From: Mobula hypostoma
Taxonomy: Eukaryota
Assembly (NCBI RefSeq): GCF_963921235.1
Contig: NC_086108.1
Span: forward strand, 81,470,001-81,534,000
Direction of reading: 5' to 3'
Length of the DNA stretch: 64,000 bases
The translations under genes were made by a program, and so were the position numbers. How positions within the stretch are numbered: the stretch's first letter is position 1; every line of letters begins with the position of its first letter. The notes below the pieces were generated by a model that had not been told where the DNA came from, searched no databases, and saw only the letters and a list, made by a program, of their open reading frames with translations. Positions 11,134-63,674 of the stretch are shown in pieces.

Positions 11134-13432
11134 CTACAGCTCAGCCATAGCAGCATTTGATGAAAAGGAGCACAACAATGCAGACTAGGAAGAAATGGAG
11201 CAAGTGACTGAGGCCAAGAGAAAAGCCCAGATGGCCTACAAGCAAAATCCCTGCACCAGCACACATGAAGCCCTCAGGGCTGCTTGAAACAAGGTGCAGC
11301 AAACTGCCCAATGCTATGGAAACAACCGCTGGCTGAATTTGTGCAGCAAAATCCAATCAGCTGCTGATAGCAGGAATACAAGAGGGATGTTTGATGGCAT
11401 CAAGTCAGCAACCCGTCCTTCAGCCACCAAGACAGCCCGACTGAGGTGGAAAAATGGGGTAGTGATCACAGCCCAGAGCAAGCACCTTGAACGTTGGGTA
11501 GAGCACTACCTGGAGCTGTTTGCAACCTGGAACGAGGTGACCAATACTGCCCTGGAGGCACCGCCTGACTAGTCAGTCATGGAAGACCTTGAAACATTGC
11601 CATCTATGGAGGAGCTATCAACTGTCTCGCCAATGGGAAAGCCCCAGGGAAAGATGGAGTCCCCCCTGAAGTCTTGAACAGTGGGAAGCCTGCCTTGCTG
11701 CATCATCTATATGAGCTTCTGTGCCTCTGCTGGGAAAAAGACCACGTCCCCCAAGACAGATGATATGCCAAAATTGTCACACTGCACAAAAACAAGAACA
11801 ACTGTAGTGATTGTAACAAATACCGAGGCATCTCTCTCCTTGATATTGTGGGGAAAGTGTTCGCCCACGTCGTCTTGGCACGACTTCAGAGCCTTGCATC
11901 CAGACTCTACCCAGAGCCCCAGTGCGGTTTCAGAACAGGCAGGTCTACAGTGCACATGATCTTTTCGCTGCACCAGCTGCAGGAGAGGTGATGAAGGCAG
12001 CAGAAGCCTCTGTGCACTGCCTTCATTGATCTGACCAAGGTGTTCAACCTCGTCAGCAGAAGCAGACTCTTCAAACTCCTGCTAAAGATTGTCTGCCCCC
12101 CAAGACTGCACAGCATCATATCATCCTTCTAAACGACGCCCACAGCACTGTCTGCTTCACTGGAGCAACTTCTGATGTCTCTCCAGAGAGCAGCGGAGTG
12201 AAACAAGGTTGTGTCCTGGCACTGACCCTCTTTGGAATCTCCTTCCTCATACTCCTTCCGATCACTTTCACAGTCTGTACCGAAGGCATTTACCTTCACA
12301 CAAGAGCTGATGGCAAGCTATTCAACATGGCTTGCTTGTGCTCCAAGACCAAAGTTAGAACAGCATTCATCGGCGAGTTGCTGTTTGCAGACGATGCAGC
12401 GTTGATGTCAAGCACTGAAGGCGGACTCCAACAACCAACTAACTGCTTCGCCCATGCCTGCAAGGAGTATGTGTTAACCATCAGTCTGAAGAAGACAAAC
12501 GTCATGGCCCAGGGTTCAGAATCGTCCCCAAACATCACCATTGATGGTTGCTGCCTTGATGCCGTCAACTCCTTCAGCTATCCTGAGTCGACCATCACCA
12601 GCTCCCCGTCCCTCGAAGCGGAGGTGAACAGCAGGATGACCCAAGCTGCGGCTGTCATGGCCAGACTGAACGACAGAGTGTGGAACAGCAGGCAGCTGAT
12701 GAAGAAGACCAAGCTGTGAGTCTACCAGGCCCAGCAGGCTCAGCACACTCCTCTTTGCCAGCAAGGCTGCTCTGGGCGCATCTTGCACATCTCCTGCCAG
12801 GGCAGAATCACCAGCACAGAGGTTCCGCAGCAGGCCGACACCGCCAGCACCCACGCATTACTCAGCCACAGATGCCTGAGATGGTTGGGCCGTGTCAAAC
12901 GGACGGACCAGGGACACTTTCCCAAGGACATGCTGCAGGATGAGCTGAGTGAAGGTTACCGCCCACGAGGAAGACCATGCCTCCGCTACAGGGATGTCTG
13001 CAAGTGCGACGTGAAGCTGACGGGCATCGGCCTGAACACATGGGAGGAAACAGTCGAAGACCAGACAGCACGGAGGGTCGCAGTCAAAAGCACGGTACAC
13101 TGTGCTGAGATAGCAGGGACCTACATGCTCATCAACTAGAGAGGCAGAGGAAAAGCCAGAGCTGCATCACCCAGAGCACCTTCCTCCGTCACCTGCAGCC
13201 ACTGTGAACGAGACTGTCACTCTAGAGTGGGGCTCTACAGCCACTGCAGAGAGTGCAAATAGCCCCAAGTCTACAAGACCAAGAACCATCAGAGAAGTGT
13301 CACACCATCAACCCTCGAGACGTACAGATGCCGACAGTGATGGACTTCAGAGGCAGAGTTTCAGAGAACAGCGTGGTAGCAAAATGGGAAAGTAACATCA
13401 GACAACGGCAGATGTCCAGAAAAGAACCTGGT

Positions 13433-33245: not shown

Positions 33246-33644
33246 AAGTTCTTCTGTGATGATGATGCTTTCAGAACACAATATTTCTTTTGATGTAAAG
33301 AACGATAAACTTTTTTTGCTGGAAAAAGTTAAAAAAGCAAAGTATTTGGGAGTCGTGTATTTGTAACTTCCCAGTTGCTTAGTTACGTTTAAGAGTTCAT
33401 GGGTCATAACTTCCTAGCTTGAGGCACAGAATGGGGGACGGGTGTGTATGTTCAAAGAAAAATGGTTTCTTGTACATAGTAAACGTATGTATGGAAAAGT
33501 GAGAATAATTCTTGAAAGGGTTTCAGTACTATAAGGGCGTGTTTATATGAATCACTTTTTTTGCCTGGAGTCTTGTGGCTTCAGTAGTAAAAGGACTTTT
33601 ATGTGCTTACATTTTAAGAGGGAAGATGGGGCACGTATAACACA

Positions 33645-34803
33645 GGTAAGGTATTTGACAAGGTTCCACACGGTAGGCTTATTCAGAAAGTCAGAAGGCA
33701 TGGGATCCAAGGAAGTTTGGCCAGGTGGATTCAGAATTGGCTTGCCTGCAGAAAGCAGAGGGTTGTGGTAGAGAGAGTACATTCAGATTGGAGGGTTGTG
33801 ACTAGTGGTGTCCCACAAGGATCTGTTCTGGGACCTCTACTTTTCGTGATTTTTATTAACAACCTGGATGTGGGGGTAGAAGGGTGGGTTGGCAAGTTTG
33901 CAGATGACACAAAGGTTGGTGGTGTTGTGGATAGTGTAGAGGATTGTCGAAGATTGCAGAGAGACATTGATAAGATGCAGAAGTGGGCTGAGAAGTGGCA
34001 GATGGAGTTCAACCCGGAGAAGTGTGAGGTGGTACACTTTGGAAGGACAAACTCCAAGGCAGAGTACAAAGTAAATGGCAGGATACTTGGAAGTGTGGAG
34101 GAGCAGAGGGATCTGGGGGTACATGTCCACAGATCCCTGAAAGTTGCCTCACAGGTAGATAGGGTAGTTAAGAAAGCTTATGGAGTGTTAGCTTTCATAA
34201 GTCAAGAGATAGAGTTTAAGCATTGCGATGTAATGATGCAGCTCTATAAAACTCTGGTTAGGCCACACTTGGAGTATTGTGTCCAGTTCTGGTCACCTCA
34301 CTATAGGAAGGATGTGGAAGCATTGGAAAGGGTACAGAGGAGATTTACCAGGATCCTGCCTGGTTTAGAAAGTATGCATTATGATCAGAGATTAAGGGAG
34401 CTAGGGCTTTACTCTTCGGAGAGAAGGAAGATGAGAGGAGACATGATAGAGGTATACAAGATAGTAAGAGGAATAGATAGAGTAGACAGCCAGCACCTCT
34501 TCCTCAGAGCACCACTGCTCAATACAAGAGGACATGGCTTTGAGGTAAGGGGTGGGAAGTTCAAGGGAGATATTAGAGGAAGGTTTTTTTACTTAGAGAG
34601 TGGTTGGTGCGAGGAATGCACTGCCTGAGTCAGTGGTGGAGGCAGATACACTAGTGAAATTTAAGAGACTGCTGGACAAGTATATAGAGGAATTTAAGGT
34701 GGGGGGTTATATGGGAGGCAGGGTTTAAGGGTCAGCACAACATTGTGGGCTGAAGGGCCTGTACTGTGCTGTACTGTTCTATGTTCTATGTTCTATGTTC
34801 TAT
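33645..34803 (+). mobile_element. CR1 LINE, 5'-truncated, young
   Basis: 303-aa RT fragment; (TTCTATG)n tail; same subfamily as 605-1805. Confidence 0.95.
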
Positions 34804-36711: not shown

Positions 36712-37175
36712 GGATTCAAGTTCAAGTTCAGCTCAAGGTTTATTGTTATTCAATCATATATTCATTCACCATGTATATCGCCAAATGGAAGTTGATCTCC
36801 AGACCAAGGTGCACATCACAGAACATACCACGCACTGACAACACATGAAGTAATATCACCGCAAATAAATTAACAAATAATCAGGTGCATTTGTGACACA
36901 AGTTAAAAAGTAAACAGTATAACACAACTGTGCCAGGGAATTCGGTAGTCTCACGGCCTAGGGAGGAAGTATTTCCCATGCTAACAGTTTTTGTCATAAT
37001 GCTACGGTACCTCCTGCCTCATCGTAGGAGGCCAAAGAGATTGTTGGATGCATGGGAGGGATCATTGGCAACGCTAAGGTCTCCTGGTAAATATCACAAG
37101 TGGGTAGAAGAGAGTCTCTGATGATCCTCTCAGCAGTCCTCACAATCCTTATCGGGTCCTGTGGTCAAATGCCTT
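36712..37175 (-). mobile_element. Rex1/Babar 3' fragment, continued after the CR1 at ~38891
   Basis: (ttcaag)n tail and ggtacctcctgcctcatcgtagg, the reverse of LP.GRRY-type coding DNA. Confidence 0.65.
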
Positions 37176-38890
37176 GAATAACTATTTTGGTTCTGTCTTC
37201 ACTAAGGGGGACATAAATAATCTTCCGGAAATAGTAGGGGACAGAGGGTCCAGTGAGATGGAGGAACTGAGGGAAATACATGTTAGTAGGGAAGTGGTGT
37301 TAGGTAAATTGAAGGGATTAAAGGCGGATAAATCCCCAGGGCCAGATGGTCTGCATCCCAGAGTGCTTAAGGAAGTAGCCCAAGAAATAGTGGATGCATT
37401 AGTGATAATTTTTCAAAACTCTTTAGATTCTGGACTAGTTCCTGAGGATTGGAGGGTGGCTAATGTAACCTCACTTTTTAAAAAAGGAGGGATAGAGAAA
37501 CCAGGGAATTATAGACCGGTTAGCCTAACATCGGTGGTGGGGAAACTGCTAGAGTCAGTTATCAAAGATGTGATAACAGCACATTTGGAAAGCGGTGAAA
37601 TCATCGGACAAAGTCAGCATGGATTTGTGAAAGGAAAATCATGTCTGACGAATCTCATAGAATTTTTTGAGGATGTAACTAGTAGAGTGGATAGGGGAGA
37701 ACCAGTGGATGTGGTATATTTGAATTTTCAAAAGGCTTTTGACAAAGTCCCACACAGGAGATTAGTGTGCAAACTTAAAGCACACTGTATTGCGGGTATG
37801 GTATTGATGTGGATAGAGAATTGGTTGGCAGACAGGAAGCAAAGAGTGGGAATAAATGGGACCTTTTCAGAATGGCAGGCGGTGACTAGTGGGGTACCGC
37901 AAGGCTCAGTGCTGGGACCCCAGTTGTTTACAATATATATTAATGACTTGGATGAGGGAATTAAATGCAGCATCTCCAAGTTTGCAGATGACACGAAGCT
38001 GGGCGGTAGTGTTAGCTGTGAGGAGGATGCTAAGAGGATGCAGGGTGACTTGGATGGGTTGGGTGAGAGGGCAAATTCATGGCAGATGCAATTTAATGTG
38101 GATAAATATGAAGTTATCCACTTTGGTGGCAAAAACAGGAAAACAGATTATTATCTGAATGGTGGCCGATTAGGAAAAGGGGAGGTGCAACGAGGCCTGG
38201 GTGTCATTATACACCAGTCATTGAAAGTGGGCATGCAGGTACAGCAGGCGGTGAAAAAGGCGAATGGTATGCTGGCATTTATAGCAAGAGGATTCGAGTA
38301 CAGGAGCAGGGAGGTACTAATGCAGTTGTACAAGGCCTTGGTGAGACCACACCTGGAGTATTGTGTGCAGTTTTGGTCCCCTAATCTGAGGAAAGACATC
38401 CTTGCCATAGAGGGAGTACAAAGAAGGTTCACCAGATTGATTCCTGGGATGGCAGGACTTTCATATGATGAAAGACTGGATGAACTAGGCTTATACTCGT
38501 TGGAATTTAGAAGATTGAGGGGGGATCTGATTGAAACGTATAAAATCCTAAAGGGATTGAACAGGCTAGATGCAGGAAGATTGTTCCCGATGTTGGGGAA
38601 GTCCAGAATGAGGGGTCACAGTTTGAGGATAAATGGGAAGCCTTTTAGAACCGAGATTAGGAAAAACTTCTTCACACAGAGAGTGGTGACAGTTGAGGCC
38701 AGTTCATTGGCTATATTTAAGAGGGAGTTAGATATGGCCCTTGTGGCTAAAGGGATCAGGGGGTATGGAGGGAAGGCTGGTACAGGGTTCTGAGTTGGAT
38801 GATCAGCCATGATCATACTGAATGGCGGTGCAGGCTCGAAGGGCTGAATGGCCTACTCCTGCACCTATTTTCTATGTTTCTATGTTTCTA
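37176..38890 (+). mobile_element. CR1 LINE, 5'-truncated, uninterrupted 539-aa RT frame
   Basis: KSPGPDGLHP, NYRPVSLTSVVGK, QKAFDKVPH, GVPQGSVLGP, KFADDTK; (TTTCTATG) tail; no endonuclease domain; small deletion near the C-terminus. Confidence 0.96.
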
Positions 38891-53687: not shown

Positions 53688-56578
53688 AGGTGACAGAGAA
53701 GGGATGCGCTCAGACCGATGGTTTGAGATGTGCCTATTTTAATCCAAGAAGCATCATGAACAAAGCGGATGAGTTTAGAGCGTGGATCAGTACTTGGAGC
53801 AATGATGTTCCGGCCATTACAGAGACCTGGATGGCTCAGGGGCAGGAATGATTACTTAGAGTGCCAGGCTTTAGATGTTTCAGAAAGGACAGGGAGGGAG
53901 GCAAAAGAGGTGGGGCGTGACACTGCTGATCAGAGATAGTGTCACGGCTGCAGAAAAGGAGTAAGTCATAGAGGGATTGTCTACTGAGTCTCTGTGGGTG
54001 GAAGTTAGAAACAGGAAGGGGTCAATAACTACTGGGTGTTTTTTATAGACCACCCAATAGTAACAGGGACATCAAGGAGCAGATAGGGAGACAGATTCTG
54101 GAAAGGTGTAATAATAACAGGGTTATCATAGTGGAAGATTTTAATTTCCCAAATATTGATTGCATCCCCCTAGAGCAAGGGGTTTAGATGGGGTGGAGAT
54201 TATTAGGTGTGTTCAGGAAGGTTTCCTGACACAGTATGTAGATAAGCCAACAAGAGGAGAGGCTGTACTTGATCTGGTATTGGGAAATGAACCTGGTCAG
54301 ATGTCAGTGAGAGAGCATTTTGGAGATAGTGATTACAATTCTATCTCCTTTACCATCGCACTGGAGAGCGATAGGGACAGACAAGATAGGAAAGTGTTTA
54401 ATTGTAGTAAGGGGAAATATGAAGCTATCAGGCAGGAACTTGGAAGCATAAATTGGGAACAGATGTTCTCAGGGAAATGTACAGCAGAAATGTGGCAAAT
54501 GTGCAGGGGATATTTGAGTGGTGTTCTGCATAGGTACGTTCCAATGAGACACGGAAAGGATAGTAGGGTGCAGGAACCATGGAGTACAAAGGCTGTTGAA
54601 AACCTAGTCAAGAAGAAAAGCAAAGCTTACAAAAGGTTCAAAAAACTAGGTAATGATAGAGATCTAGAAAATTATAAGGCTAGCAGGAAGGAGCTTAAGA
54701 ATGAAATTAGGAGAGCCAGAAGGGGCCATGAGAAGGCCTTGGCGAGCAGGATTAAAGAAAACCCCAAGGCATTCTACACGTATGTGAAGAGCAAAAGGAT
54801 AAGACATGAGAGAATAGGACCAATCAAGTATGACAGTGGAAAAGTGTCTATGGAACCAGAGGAGATAGCAGAGGTACTTAATGAATACCTTGCTTCAGCA
54901 TTCACTACGGAAAAAGATCTTGGCAATTGTAGGGATGACTTACAGTGGACTGAAAAGTTTGAGCATATAGACATTAAGAAAGAGGAGGCGCTTGAGCTTT
55001 TGAAAAGCATCAAGTTGGATAAGTACCTGGGATCGGACAAGATGTACCCCAGGCTACTGTGGGAGGCGAGGGAGGAGATTGCTGGGCCTCTGGCGATGAT
55101 CTTTGCATCATCAATGGGGACAGGAGAGGATCCGGAGGATTGGAAGGTTGCAGATGTTGTTCCCTTATTCAAAAAAGGGATTAGAGATAGCCCAGGAAAT
55201 TATAGACCAGTGAGTCTTACTTCAGTGGTTGGTAAGTTGATGGAAAAGATCCTGAGAGGCAGGATTTATGAACATTTGGAGAGGCATAATATGATTAGGA
55301 ATAATCAGCATGGCTTTGTCAAAGGCAGGTCGTGCCTTACGAGCTTGATTGAATTTTTTGCGGATATGACTAAACATCTGATGAAGGCAGAGCAATAGAT
55401 GTAGTGTATATGGATTTCGGCAAGGCATTTGATAAGCTACCCCATGCAAGGCTTATTGAGAAAATAAGGAGGCATGGGATCCAAGGGGACTTTGCTTTGT
55501 GGATCCAGAGCTGGCTTGCCCACAGAAGGCAAAGAGTGGTTGTAGACAGGTCATATTCTGCATGGAGGTCGGTCACCAGTAGTGTCCCTCAGGGATCTGT
55601 TCTGGGACCCCTTCTCTTCATTATTTTTATAAATGACCTGGATAAGGAAGTGGAGGGATGGGTTAGTAAATTTGCTGATGACACAAAGGTTGGGGGTGTT
55701 GTGGATAGTGTGGAGGGCTATCAGAGGTTACAGCAGGACATCGATAGGATGCAAAACTGAGCTGAGAAGTGGCAGATGGAGTTTAAACCAGATAAGTGTG
55801 AAGTGGTTCATTTTGGTAGGTCAAATATGATGGCAGAATATAGTATTAGAGGTAAGATGCTTGGCTGTGTGGAGGATCAGAGGGATCTTGGGGTCCAAGT
55901 CCATAGGATGCTCAAAGCTGCTGCGCAGTTAACTCTGTGGTTAAGAAGGCATACGGTGTATTGGCCTTCATCAATTGTGAGATTGTGTTTAAGAGCCGAG
56001 AGGTAATGTTGCAAATATATAGGACCCTGGTCAGACCCCACTTGTAGTACTGTGCTTAGTTCAGGTCGCCTCTCTACAGGAAGGATGTGGAAGCCATAGA
56101 AAGGGTGCAGAGGAGATTTACAAGGATGTTGCCTGGATTGGGGAGCATGCCTTATGAGAATAGGTTGAGAGAACTCGGCCTTTTCTCCTTGGAGCGGCGG
56201 AGGATGAGAGGTGACCTGATAGAGGTGTATAAGATGATGAGAGGCATTGATTGTGTGTATAGTCAGAGGCTTTTTCCCAGGGCTGAAATGGCTAATAGGA
56301 GCGGGCACAGTTTTAAGGTGCTTGGAAGTAGGTACAGAGGAGATGTCAGGGGTAAGTTTTTTACGCAGGGAGTGGTAAGTGCGTGGAATGGGCTGCTTGT
56401 GACGGTGGTGGAGGTGGATATGATAGGGTCTTTTAAGAGACTCCTGGTTAGGTACATGGAGCTTAGAAAAATAGAGGGTTATGAGTAACCCTAGGTCATT
56501 TCTGAAGTACGTACACGTTTGGCACAGCTTTGTGGGCTGAAGGGCCTGTATTGTGCTGTAGGTTTTTCTATGTTTCTA
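53688..56578 (+). mobile_element. CR1 LINE with nearly complete ORF2 (APE endonuclease plus RT), frameshifted
   Basis: CAYFNPRSI, AITETW, YRPPN, DFNFP, LDLVL, GDSD, NYRPVSLTSVVGK, KFADDTK, tttctatgtttcta tail. Confidence 0.95.
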
Positions 56579-61925: not shown

Positions 61926-62834
61926 AGATGCTGAAATGTGATGTCAGTGAAAACAAAGAAAGGCAAATTCATTCATTGTCTTCTAATAGTAACTAGTTAA
62001 GTGCTTAGAAGAAAAAGCAACTGCAGGAATGTGGAGTGAGTGTGCTGGTGTAACTGTGTTGCACTTACTTGGAGCCTGTAGGGACCAGAGTAGCCGAATG
62101 GCTCCTTCCATGCTGTGAGAATTTCCTGTGATTTTACGTAAAATTCCTCCTGAATTCTAAATATCTATTTTTCTCTATTCTTCCTACAAAATATATTTAC
62201 GCTTCCCTTTATTTTGCACTTTCTACCTGCAACCTTTCGGTTCACTTGCTTAACCTTGTCATCTCAGGAGCTACTCTACATACAATCAACAGATCTTTAA
62301 TCTCCAGGTGATACTAATTCATTCAGTTCACTCCAAAAAGGCAATACTTTTCTTAGTTTATCATCTGCTGATGATATTTGCTCGTGCTTGCTCTCTCGCT
62401 CTCTAGTTTAATATTTGAAGGTATTTTCTTCGACGGGTAGTTTCTCTGAGTTCAGCCTGAACTCCACTAGGTAGGGAAAAACAGTTAAGATTTACATTGA
62501 AGTACAGTGTCTCAACTTGCAAGATGACCTATCTCTTCCTCTGAGCCCTCTTTACTTATAGTCCAAAAATCGCACCACTGCCAGTTTGATTGACACAATC
62601 CTTCCTTTTGTCTGTACCCTCTCTTTTCTGTTTGCTGGATAAAGTAAAGTTTGATGTTCTTTGACAGAGAAAAGTTTTGAGTGTCTCAGCAGTCTAAAAC
62701 ATATTAACGATAATTTCCCCTGATATTCACACCCGTGAATGCCTGTTAGGGACAAAGCGAGACAGAGCTGAAGTTATCTTGATGCATTGGCTTCTTACTT
62801 TGTTGACATTATCATATACTGTAGCAGGGGTCCA

Positions 62835-63395
62835 TGGGGTGTGTGGGGTGTCAGGGAGGAGTAGCACCCCTGGTGGGGGAACATGTCGCGTCCTTTTCAG
62901 GGCGGTTAGTCCACCTTTGGTCCCCACCTGGCACTCAGCTCTCACCTGTGTCTCCCCGTAGCTGTTTGCATGTGACAGCGGCCACACTCCGGGCAACGGT
63001 TTCGACAAGCCGGCTAAAGCAGGTGAGGGTAGCCGACGGGTCTCAAACCCTCGGTGTGATAGGGAGTTGTCTATCCCAGCACGTGAAGACAGACTCCGGC
63101 GGATTGAGCGGACGAGACCAATGGAAGGTCCAATGGTCAAGGCGGCGGTCTCTGCAAGTGTCATGGAACATGTAGAGCAGGACAAGACACAGAAGACGTC
63201 TCGGTCATCCACCGCACCCAGCCCCATCTCCAGCCATCTCGACTCTGTCTTGCCACTGGATCCAGATGGGAACTGGGAAGAGAGAGTGAGGCTGATGCTG
63301 TGCAACTCTCCCTCACTTAAATCCAAATCAAGCACTAGTCTCGACACCATCATAATGGTGTGGAGGTCCTCATCGACGTCAACGATGAATGAACA
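62835..63395 (+). mobile_element. Non-autonomous RTE-type retroelement with 5' ribozyme
   Basis: 14-bp TSD gtagcaggggtcca (62821-62834) / gcagcgggggtcca (63396-63409), 2 mismatches; atgaatgaac tail; no RT coding sequence. Confidence 0.8.
62836..63030 (+). ncRNA. HDV-like self-cleaving ribozyme with long J1/2 and an L3 hairpin insert
   Basis: P1 GGGGTGT (62836-42) / ACACTCC (62984-90); P2 CTCACCTG (62941-48) / CAGGTGAG (63020-27); P3 GTC/GCC (one mismatch); L3 TCCCCGT; GG-GCAA; P4 CGGTTT-cgac-AAGCCG; J4/2 GCTAA with catalytic-position C63014. Confidence 0.75.
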
Positions 63396-63674
63396 GCAGC
63401 GGGGGTCCAGAAGAGAAGCTTGTGGTTGCATGAACAAAATATTTCAGGATTCCATCTCCAGTTTACAGTCTGTTTGAAAAGTATTACCACTGATGTAAGA
63501 TTCCACCACAATATCTTAGACCAGAAATTGCAGTCAATTTTCTAAAGGCTAATATTTGGTTCACCATGAGTTCGTCAGCATTCACCACTAAAGTGTCTGG
63601 CTACATTTCCTTTAGCCACATTAATGTTCTTTGAATTTAATTAGTATTAAATGTGCTGTATTCTTGGTATTTAT

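Follow-up and report, generated by a model that had tools for sequence, protein, structure and literature searches.

A putative bipartite, ORF-less derivative of an RTE-type LINE with an HDV-like fold at its 5' end and a deletion joint inside a 5'/3' inverted repeat

Internally deleted LINEs that are headed by a ribozyme are already a published class (PMC3414825, PMC5786205, PMC6765202). The R2 SIDEs of Drosophila are ribozyme-headed deleted LINEs for which cleavage has been demonstrated (Eickbush and Eickbush 2012, PMC3414825), and R2 ribozymes keep 15 nt for P1.1, P3 and L3 together (PMC3774820). [quoted passage not shown] HDV-like ribozymes are placed at the 5' ends of RTE, baggins, R4 and L1Tc elements, and RIME/NARTc belongs to the same set (via PMC6765202). 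The RTE element Perere-3 of Schistosoma mansoni carries a Twister T-variant at its 5' end, with transcription from host promoters being proposed (PMC8501958).

The element studied here lies in a window of 64 kb, which is the whole stretch of DNA that was analysed. Like the R2 SIDEs (PMC3414825), it is an internally deleted LINE with a 5' HDV-like ribozyme and the parent's 3' end, without a Pol III head and mobilised in trans; unlike them, its parent is an APE-type RTE, its copies are dispersed with target site duplications (TSDs) and number in the thousands, its L3 holds a hairpin, and its ribozyme is a predicted one. With the bipartite RTE LINEs it shares a part of an RTE 5' UTR joined to the extreme 3' end in the absence of the ORF, and it departs from Kojima's account of them, in the sections available, in that the joint falls within a covarying 5'/3' helix. 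The HDV-like ribozymes of RTE, baggins, R4 and L1Tc agree with it in fold, place and proposed job; as cited in PMC6765202, they differ from it in that the element has a 28-nt L3 containing an inserted hairpin and a doubled P1 5' strand. Perere-3 is alike in being an RTE whose TSD abuts the ribozyme cut site (a predicted cut in the element), and unlike in its ribozyme class (Twister) and in being autonomous. Taken as first put forward, the finding adds a high-copy case from a vertebrate to an arrangement already in print. Its parts in the window copy are listed below.

62821..62834 (+): left TSD, 12/14 identical to the right copy
62835 (+): extra T between the TSD and ribozyme G1; T at this place in 12/17 copies chosen by 3' end
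62836..62842 (+): P1 5' strand, the predicted self-cleavage site being immediately 5' of G62836; unit 1 of a 9-nt repeat in tandem; start of 17/29 copies
62845..62851 (+): second repeat unit, an alternative P1 5' strand or the base of a J1/2 hairpin
62852..62937 (+): J1/2 insertion with internal structure, in which pairs 41-47/83-87 and 60-64/72-76 change in a compensatory way from family to family
62941..62948 (+): P2 5' strand
62950..62952 (+): P3 5' strand; the private change G62951T breaks the middle pair (0/29 other copies)
62953..62980 (+): L3 of 28 nt, opening with 7 canonical nt (U20, C21, C22, G25 equivalents) that are followed by an inserted hairpin at 62961-62979
62981..62992 (+): P3 3' strand (62981-62983), P1 3' strand (62984-62990) and GG of P1.1
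62997..63012 (+): P4 hairpin; 3/6 pairs change on both sides between families
63013..63027 (+): J4/2 (GCUAA at 63013-63017, with predicted catalytic C63014; C in 23/23 aligned rows), then P2 3' strand at 63020-63027
63028..63353 (+): remainder of the parent RTE 5' UTR, non-coding; the element holds the first ~520 of ~850 nt
63340..63365 (+): junction hairpin, 5' UTR arm at 63340-63350 and 3'-end arm at 63355-63365; joint at about 63353; C63362G private
63353..63395 (+): parent RTE 3' end, with stop codon, helix arm, terminal stem-loop at 63371-63387 and start of an (AAC)n-type tail
63396..63409 (+): right TSD

The 561-nt insertion at positions 62835-63395 was confirmed in the sequence as it had been described, and genome-wide search places it in a dispersed repeat, with 39 other copies at 93-94% identity over nearly the whole length among the best 40 of 5065 first-look candidates that were scored. 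Its claimed 14-bp TSD is present but imperfect, with 12 of 14 positions identical. A 37-nt motif running from P4 to P2 occurs exactly 1012 times in the 3.5-Gb genome, compared with 0 occurrences of the reversed control, and a junction motif with two mismatches allowed gives 3093 matches. The latter count is inflated because the nearly palindromic junction pattern counts perfect copies twice, so that the copy number is given as at least about 1,550, a safe lower bound from this motif. Perfect TSDs of at least 8 bp flank 21 of 30 copies in one set and 16 of 22 in another, and the copies end in AAC/AACC tails, the microsatellite type of tail expected from target-primed reverse transcription (TPRT). 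The window copy is 5.8% diverged from the majority of 30 copies, whereas other copies are 1.1-3.6% diverged; together with the disruption of P3 and of the junction helix, this suggests that the window copy is probably dead. No second copy of the element was found within the window, which is otherwise rich in repeats, with RVT_1 remnants of other LINEs at 12030-12719, 33618-34628, 37108-38793 and 54160-55398.

The parent was reached through a degenerate core pattern with 454 relatives, 2 of 30 fetched loci continuing into an endonuclease frame. One of these parent-type loci (L144) spans 4.07 kb, has a separate TSD and carries APE and RT remnants between ends that match the query at positions 3-522 (91% identity) and 519-561 (86%); the element is accordingly the first ~520 nt of the parent joined to its last ~43 nt, with the ORF deleted. 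Among 17 parent-family loci found through the endonuclease, 10 reach query positions 1-3, and the 3' match is shown by 8 of the 12 parent loci fetched at length. Another locus (L176) holds an unbroken frame of 1109 aa with Exo_endo_phos and RVT_1 domains. The parent has a single APE-RT ORF and a short 3' UTR and lacks ORF1; this build (an APE-RT ORF of ~1100 aa, a short 3' UTR, no ORF1) and the motifs are what we take to be marks of RTE, and the parent would on these grounds be an RTE-type LINE, assigned by build rather than by tree. Relatives at 57-78% identity are found in a frog, turtles, a shark and many 4-kb metagenome contigs. For family B, a query that included flanking sequence retrieved an unrelated repeat and no parent.

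The original prediction had called the element SINE-like, with only its 3' tail borrowed from RTE. Being short, non-coding, of high copy number and tailed like an RTE, it could be taken for a SINE-like family of separate origin with a captured ribozyme head, but identity to the parent 5' UTR is 86-95% across ~520 nt of its head and body, which refutes this alternative and leaves it next to no probability. The part of the claim that stands is that the element is non-autonomous and mobilised by RTE; the part that falls is the separate origin, the whole element being the parent LINE's 5' UTR plus its 3' end. The predicted lack of a Pol III head is borne out by the absence of a tRNA gene in 4 loci, the absence of an A or B box by pattern search of the element, the absence of any Rfam match to the element at E<=10 (the ribozyme included), and a head that is a LINE 5' UTR; Pfam likewise gave no match for the two long spurious frames over the element. 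Because both head and tail match the parent, and no tRNA, A/B box or Rfam match was found, the element is classified, on its sequence, as a bipartite non-autonomous LINE, an internal-deletion derivative of an RTE and not a SINE. Since the whole element is the parent's own 5' UTR and 3' end, the ribozyme is inherited from the LINE.

At this 5' end, every part of the HDV-like nested double pseudoknot is present in the order that had been predicted: P1, P2, P3 (with a U-C mismatch), CC/GG P1.1, P4 and GCUAA with C63014. The pseudoknot is fully paired in the family majority, and the P3 mismatch of the window copy is private to it, with the majority carrying the proposed GGC. The equivalents of the active-site residues U20, C21, C22, G25, G38, G39 and C75, on what we take to be the HDV numbering, are in place, except that G38 is A in several rows of family B. 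The original prediction described neither of two further features. The first is the length of L3, which is 28 nt rather than 7-8 because of the inserted hairpin, so that L3 is not of the compact kind usual in HDV-like ribozymes and the element ribozyme is filed as an HDV-like variant rather than a plain member. The second is the equally good second P1 5' strand. The autonomous RTEs of family D (L215-L221) have a single P1 unit at their start (6 pairs and a C-A mismatch), with the tandem unit absent.

Statistical support for the fold within this genome is uneven. A descriptor with the long L3 and one P3 mismatch, which was composed after the element had been seen, has this locus as its sole match on both strands of the window and 1 match in 6 shuffled strands; the strict descriptor gives 0 matches in the window and in 0 of 6 shuffles. 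The nested minimum free energy is unremarkable (z -1.17). Across 23 rows from 4 families, the pseudoknot is 92.2% paired versus 89.7% when shuffled, with slid controls at 27-52%, and the covariation score is 0.153 versus 0.108 shuffled, in an alignment of which 5 family-D rows are misaligned in P1. The covariation that the original prediction had called for is seen between families in this genome as true double changes confined to the P4 and J1/2 stems; P1, P2, P3 and P1.1 show no real covariation within this genome, being nearly invariant, and are therefore uninformative on pairing there. No family with a changed first base of the P1 3' strand was found, and 20 scattered single mutants were. 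RNAalifold prefers a nested fold in which P2 is extended, the P3 5' strand pairs with J4/2 and the catalytic C is buried; it is the chief competitor of the pseudoknot.

An outside comparison was provided by 70 metagenome loci, of which 19 with long 5' UTRs were screened for the fold. A clear HDV-like fold is found in 3 of the 19 (L300, L311 and L327), with registers set by hand, the automatic descriptor having misplaced L300, L311, L275 and L308; the fold is partial in 2, and L275 (P1 mismatch) and L308 (P1.1 broken) were left out of the clear folds. In all three clear cases, P1, P2, P3 and P4 have other sequences yet are paired, and P1 adjoins an AT-rich flank. L300 has a 28-nt L3 with a hairpin as in the element, its P1 opens with an A-U pair, one P2 pair is swapped and P4 is different; L327 differs in P1, P2, P3 and P4 and has a compact L3 identical to the first 7 nt of the element's L3; and the L3 of L311 is compact as well. 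Combined, these three fix the register and mark the L3 hairpin as a lineage-specific insertion. None of 20 such metagenome RTE loci matched Rfam at the gathering score, which suggests that, if the family cleaves, searches fixing a short L3 miss ribozymes of this type. It would also follow from cleavage that the L3 of an HDV-like ribozyme tolerates an entire hairpin.

To avoid a bias towards full length, the survey of 5' ends used copies retrieved with the 3'-terminal 77 nt of a copy close to the majority, the query itself being dropped. From the 29 copies so chosen, 17 start at query positions 1-3, in line with the expectation that full-length copies begin at P1 G1, another 5 start at 5-11, and 7 are truncated at 50-442. 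In the window copy, the predicted cut had been placed 1 nt inside the left TSD; it actually lies 1 nt downstream of it, with T62835 as an extra base. Perfect TSDs of at least 8 bp were found for 16 of the 22 copies that reach the 5' end: the TSD directly adjoins G1 in 4, is separated from it by a single extra base in 4 and by 4-8 extra bases in another 4, and reaches 1-9 nt into the element in the other 4. The element thus resembles R2, in which variable non-templated bases occur at the 5' junction when cleavage resets the end in each cycle (PMC3774820), in having variable extra bases at this junction. In 3 of the 16 TSD-bearing copies, the 4-8 extra upstream bases resemble the 5' repeat unit, suggesting that some templates extended 5' of G1. 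The first P1 unit has an A-C mismatch in 7 of 30 copies; we infer that the 5' repeat can grow and that the ribozyme uses whichever unit is available.

These 5' ends would be accounted for equally well by a fixed start site, and a different explanation is that the RTE 5' UTR contains a Pol II promoter that sets the start at G1, with the HDV-like fold being vestigial or the nested fold serving translation or protein binding. The nested RNAalifold consensus, an L3 four times the usual length and the repeat-like bases upstream of G1 in some copies all agree with such a promoter, as does the statement, in the available text of Kojima 2018 (PMC5786205), that bipartite LINEs are transcribed by Pol II and that LINE 5' ends drive transcription. 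However, the first 7 nt are complementary to the 7 nt after P3 in the element family, and the same holds for L300, L311 and L327, where the sequences are other ones. The nested fold leaves this 7-nt complementarity unexplained, and the U20, C21, G25 and C75 equivalents are kept. A promoter with a vestigial fold is consequently judged to be improbable, and the preferred reading is that of an HDV-like fold that is intact in the family majority, from which cleavage is predicted.

What is new at this locus is the position of the deletion joint, which falls within an 11-bp inverted repeat whose arms stand 3.5 kb apart in the parent. A search of the literature, with patents, Repbase and most subscription journals outside its scope, found no description of the L3 insertion or of RTE 5'/3' pairing. 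The joint is inside the 4-nt loop of what is a perfect 11-bp hairpin, broken in the window copy by C63362G. In the parent, the 5' arm is located 24 nt after a conserved 5' UTR motif and the 3' arm falls in the interval from the stop codon to the terminal stem-loop. Arms that complement each other, with different sequences, occur at these two places in families C, D and E as well, giving four RTE families of this genome with an equivalent helix place; in family E, the helix is present but the 5' head is a different one without the HDV-like fold.

Support for the helix in this genome depends on anchoring. A loose 60-nt duplex scan over whole elements was negative, with 8 of 8 copies no better than shuffles (9-24 of 25 shuffles were as good). 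An anchored test used 19 of 24 copies, 5 being omitted for a missing or displaced anchor, and scored 16, the pattern having missed 3 more; for 14 of these 16, no more than 6 of 200 shuffles did as well, while 2 family-A copies failed and family E was weak by energy. In a 4x4 matrix of families, cognate arm pairs score 22-34 versus 11-18 for foreign ones, with the cognate pair highest in every row and column. Counted by eye, 5 double changes that keep the arms paired separate family A from E, and 3 separate C from D.

The search was extended to metagenome RTEs. In 22 full-length elements tested with a broad 3' segment, the best complement falls at -370 to -310 in 6. With anchoring on the terminal stem, 18 elements were scored (3 without the stem pattern and 1 with a short UTR were excluded), and the best complement in the whole UTR falls at -380 to -300 in 9, compared with an expectation of 1.75; in the other 9 of the 18, the helix is not in the expected window. 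In eight controls, shifted segments give 2-4 of 18; for foreign arms, the figure is 37 of 306. The enrichment has P of about 1e-4 at the foreign-arm rate, 4e-4 when one of a related pair (82% identical) is removed, and 0.009 at the worst control rate, values that are to be read with the helix window having come from the families of this genome but the window and stem pattern having been fixed after the first metagenome result was seen.

It is conceivable that the 5'/3' helix only guided the deletion, or that it reflects old copying accidents, without a role in normal retrotransposition. A family-C short copy (L115) that lost most of the parent helix, another family in which this 5' part is followed by a foreign tail, the half of the metagenome elements that are without the helix and the negative loose scan all point that way. 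The arms diverge between families yet remain paired, however, and the pairing is found in autonomous elements, for which the deletion brings no gain; a helix without function is on this evidence considered rather unlikely.

Overall, the explanation that is favoured, and held to be likely, is that of a bipartite, ORF-less RTE derivative that arose by one internal deletion and was amplified in trans by the parent's APE-RT, with trimming by the ribozyme, looping by the helix, deletion across the loop and the present copy dead. Whenever Pol II transcription reads through a source copy, the HDV-like ribozyme would trim the RNA at G1, giving a defined 5' end. In the parent RNA, the 5' UTR arm would pair with the arm beside the terminal stem-loop and close the ORF into a loop, and reverse transcriptase may have skipped this loop or recombination may have removed it. 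In stringent LINEs, the protein binds the terminal stem of the RNA and copies it by TPRT; here, the parent protein would bind the terminal stem together with the adjacent helix. The deleted product may have survived because it retained the paired arms and terminal stem that the protein needs, and the short element, having kept every signal, would then have outnumbered its parent.

A more general reading is put forward tentatively, as a possibility that falls somewhat short of an even chance. RTE RNAs may be looped by a short helix in which the bases just before the terminal stem-loop pair with a set position of the 5' UTR, 300-380 nt upstream of the endonuclease, with the helix belonging to the features that the RTE protein recognises or bringing both ends to the target site; in that case, parasites of RTEs would have to keep the 5' UTR piece and their joints would fall at the helix, while in this lineage an HDV-like ribozyme with an L3 hairpin would cut the 5' end. 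The helix is a concrete candidate for the reason that bipartite derivatives, like bipartite SINE tails, come from RTE and few other clades. It is relevant, too, to gene-insertion templates based on RTE, for which cognate 5' and 3' UTRs have so far been tuned by screening (PMC13708176).

Several observations on related elements were made in the course of the analysis. Two loci have a 3'-arm complement close to the endonuclease: in L269, a 16-bp stretch at about 730-750, which looks like a perfect match to the 3' arm's complement, is only 68 nt before the endonuclease, which suggests a shortened 5' UTR that kept the arm, and L251 is similar, with its 3'-arm complement at -19. One contig of low depth, from an organism other than this one, has its joint elsewhere in the junction hairpin and is treated as a lead only. 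An abundant RTE family with ~65% aa identity and several frames above 1000 aa (L188-L191 and L251-L253) has query 233-506 and the 5'/3' helix in common with the element; its GC-rich 5' head differs and is without this ribozyme.

Additional searches for the parent turned up other elements. An endonuclease-family search retrieved other LINE types only, and a search for a DUF6451 partner led to an SR2-like RTE with a (GAA)n tail, without a match to the element. A more distant RTE (L046, G000:C36:131597500-131605500, minus strand) combines an open frame of 1018 aa with a (GAA)n tail and is unrelated to the element in DNA. Loci L094, L096, L106 and L113 belong to a young LINE family with many identical open frames of 1224 aa. 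In L200, L210, L197 and L244, which are autonomous copies, the 5' head is inverted relative to the ORF, in the manner of 5' inversions by twin priming.

Among the short copies, L117, L118, L119, L124, L126, L136 and L141 (~1390-1915) combine a family-C ribozyme head (query 1-381) with a foreign 3' tail, which is unlike either parent examined and is a probable case of tail exchange. The family-B copies retrieved by one query (L120 and L259-L263) all end beside the same other repeat, as if they had been inserted at one site in that repeat or carried along with it. Finally, a family-A short copy on the minus strand (L137) has an insert of ~150 nt with a tRNA-like head, which received no ARAGORN call, exactly at the 5'/3' joint.
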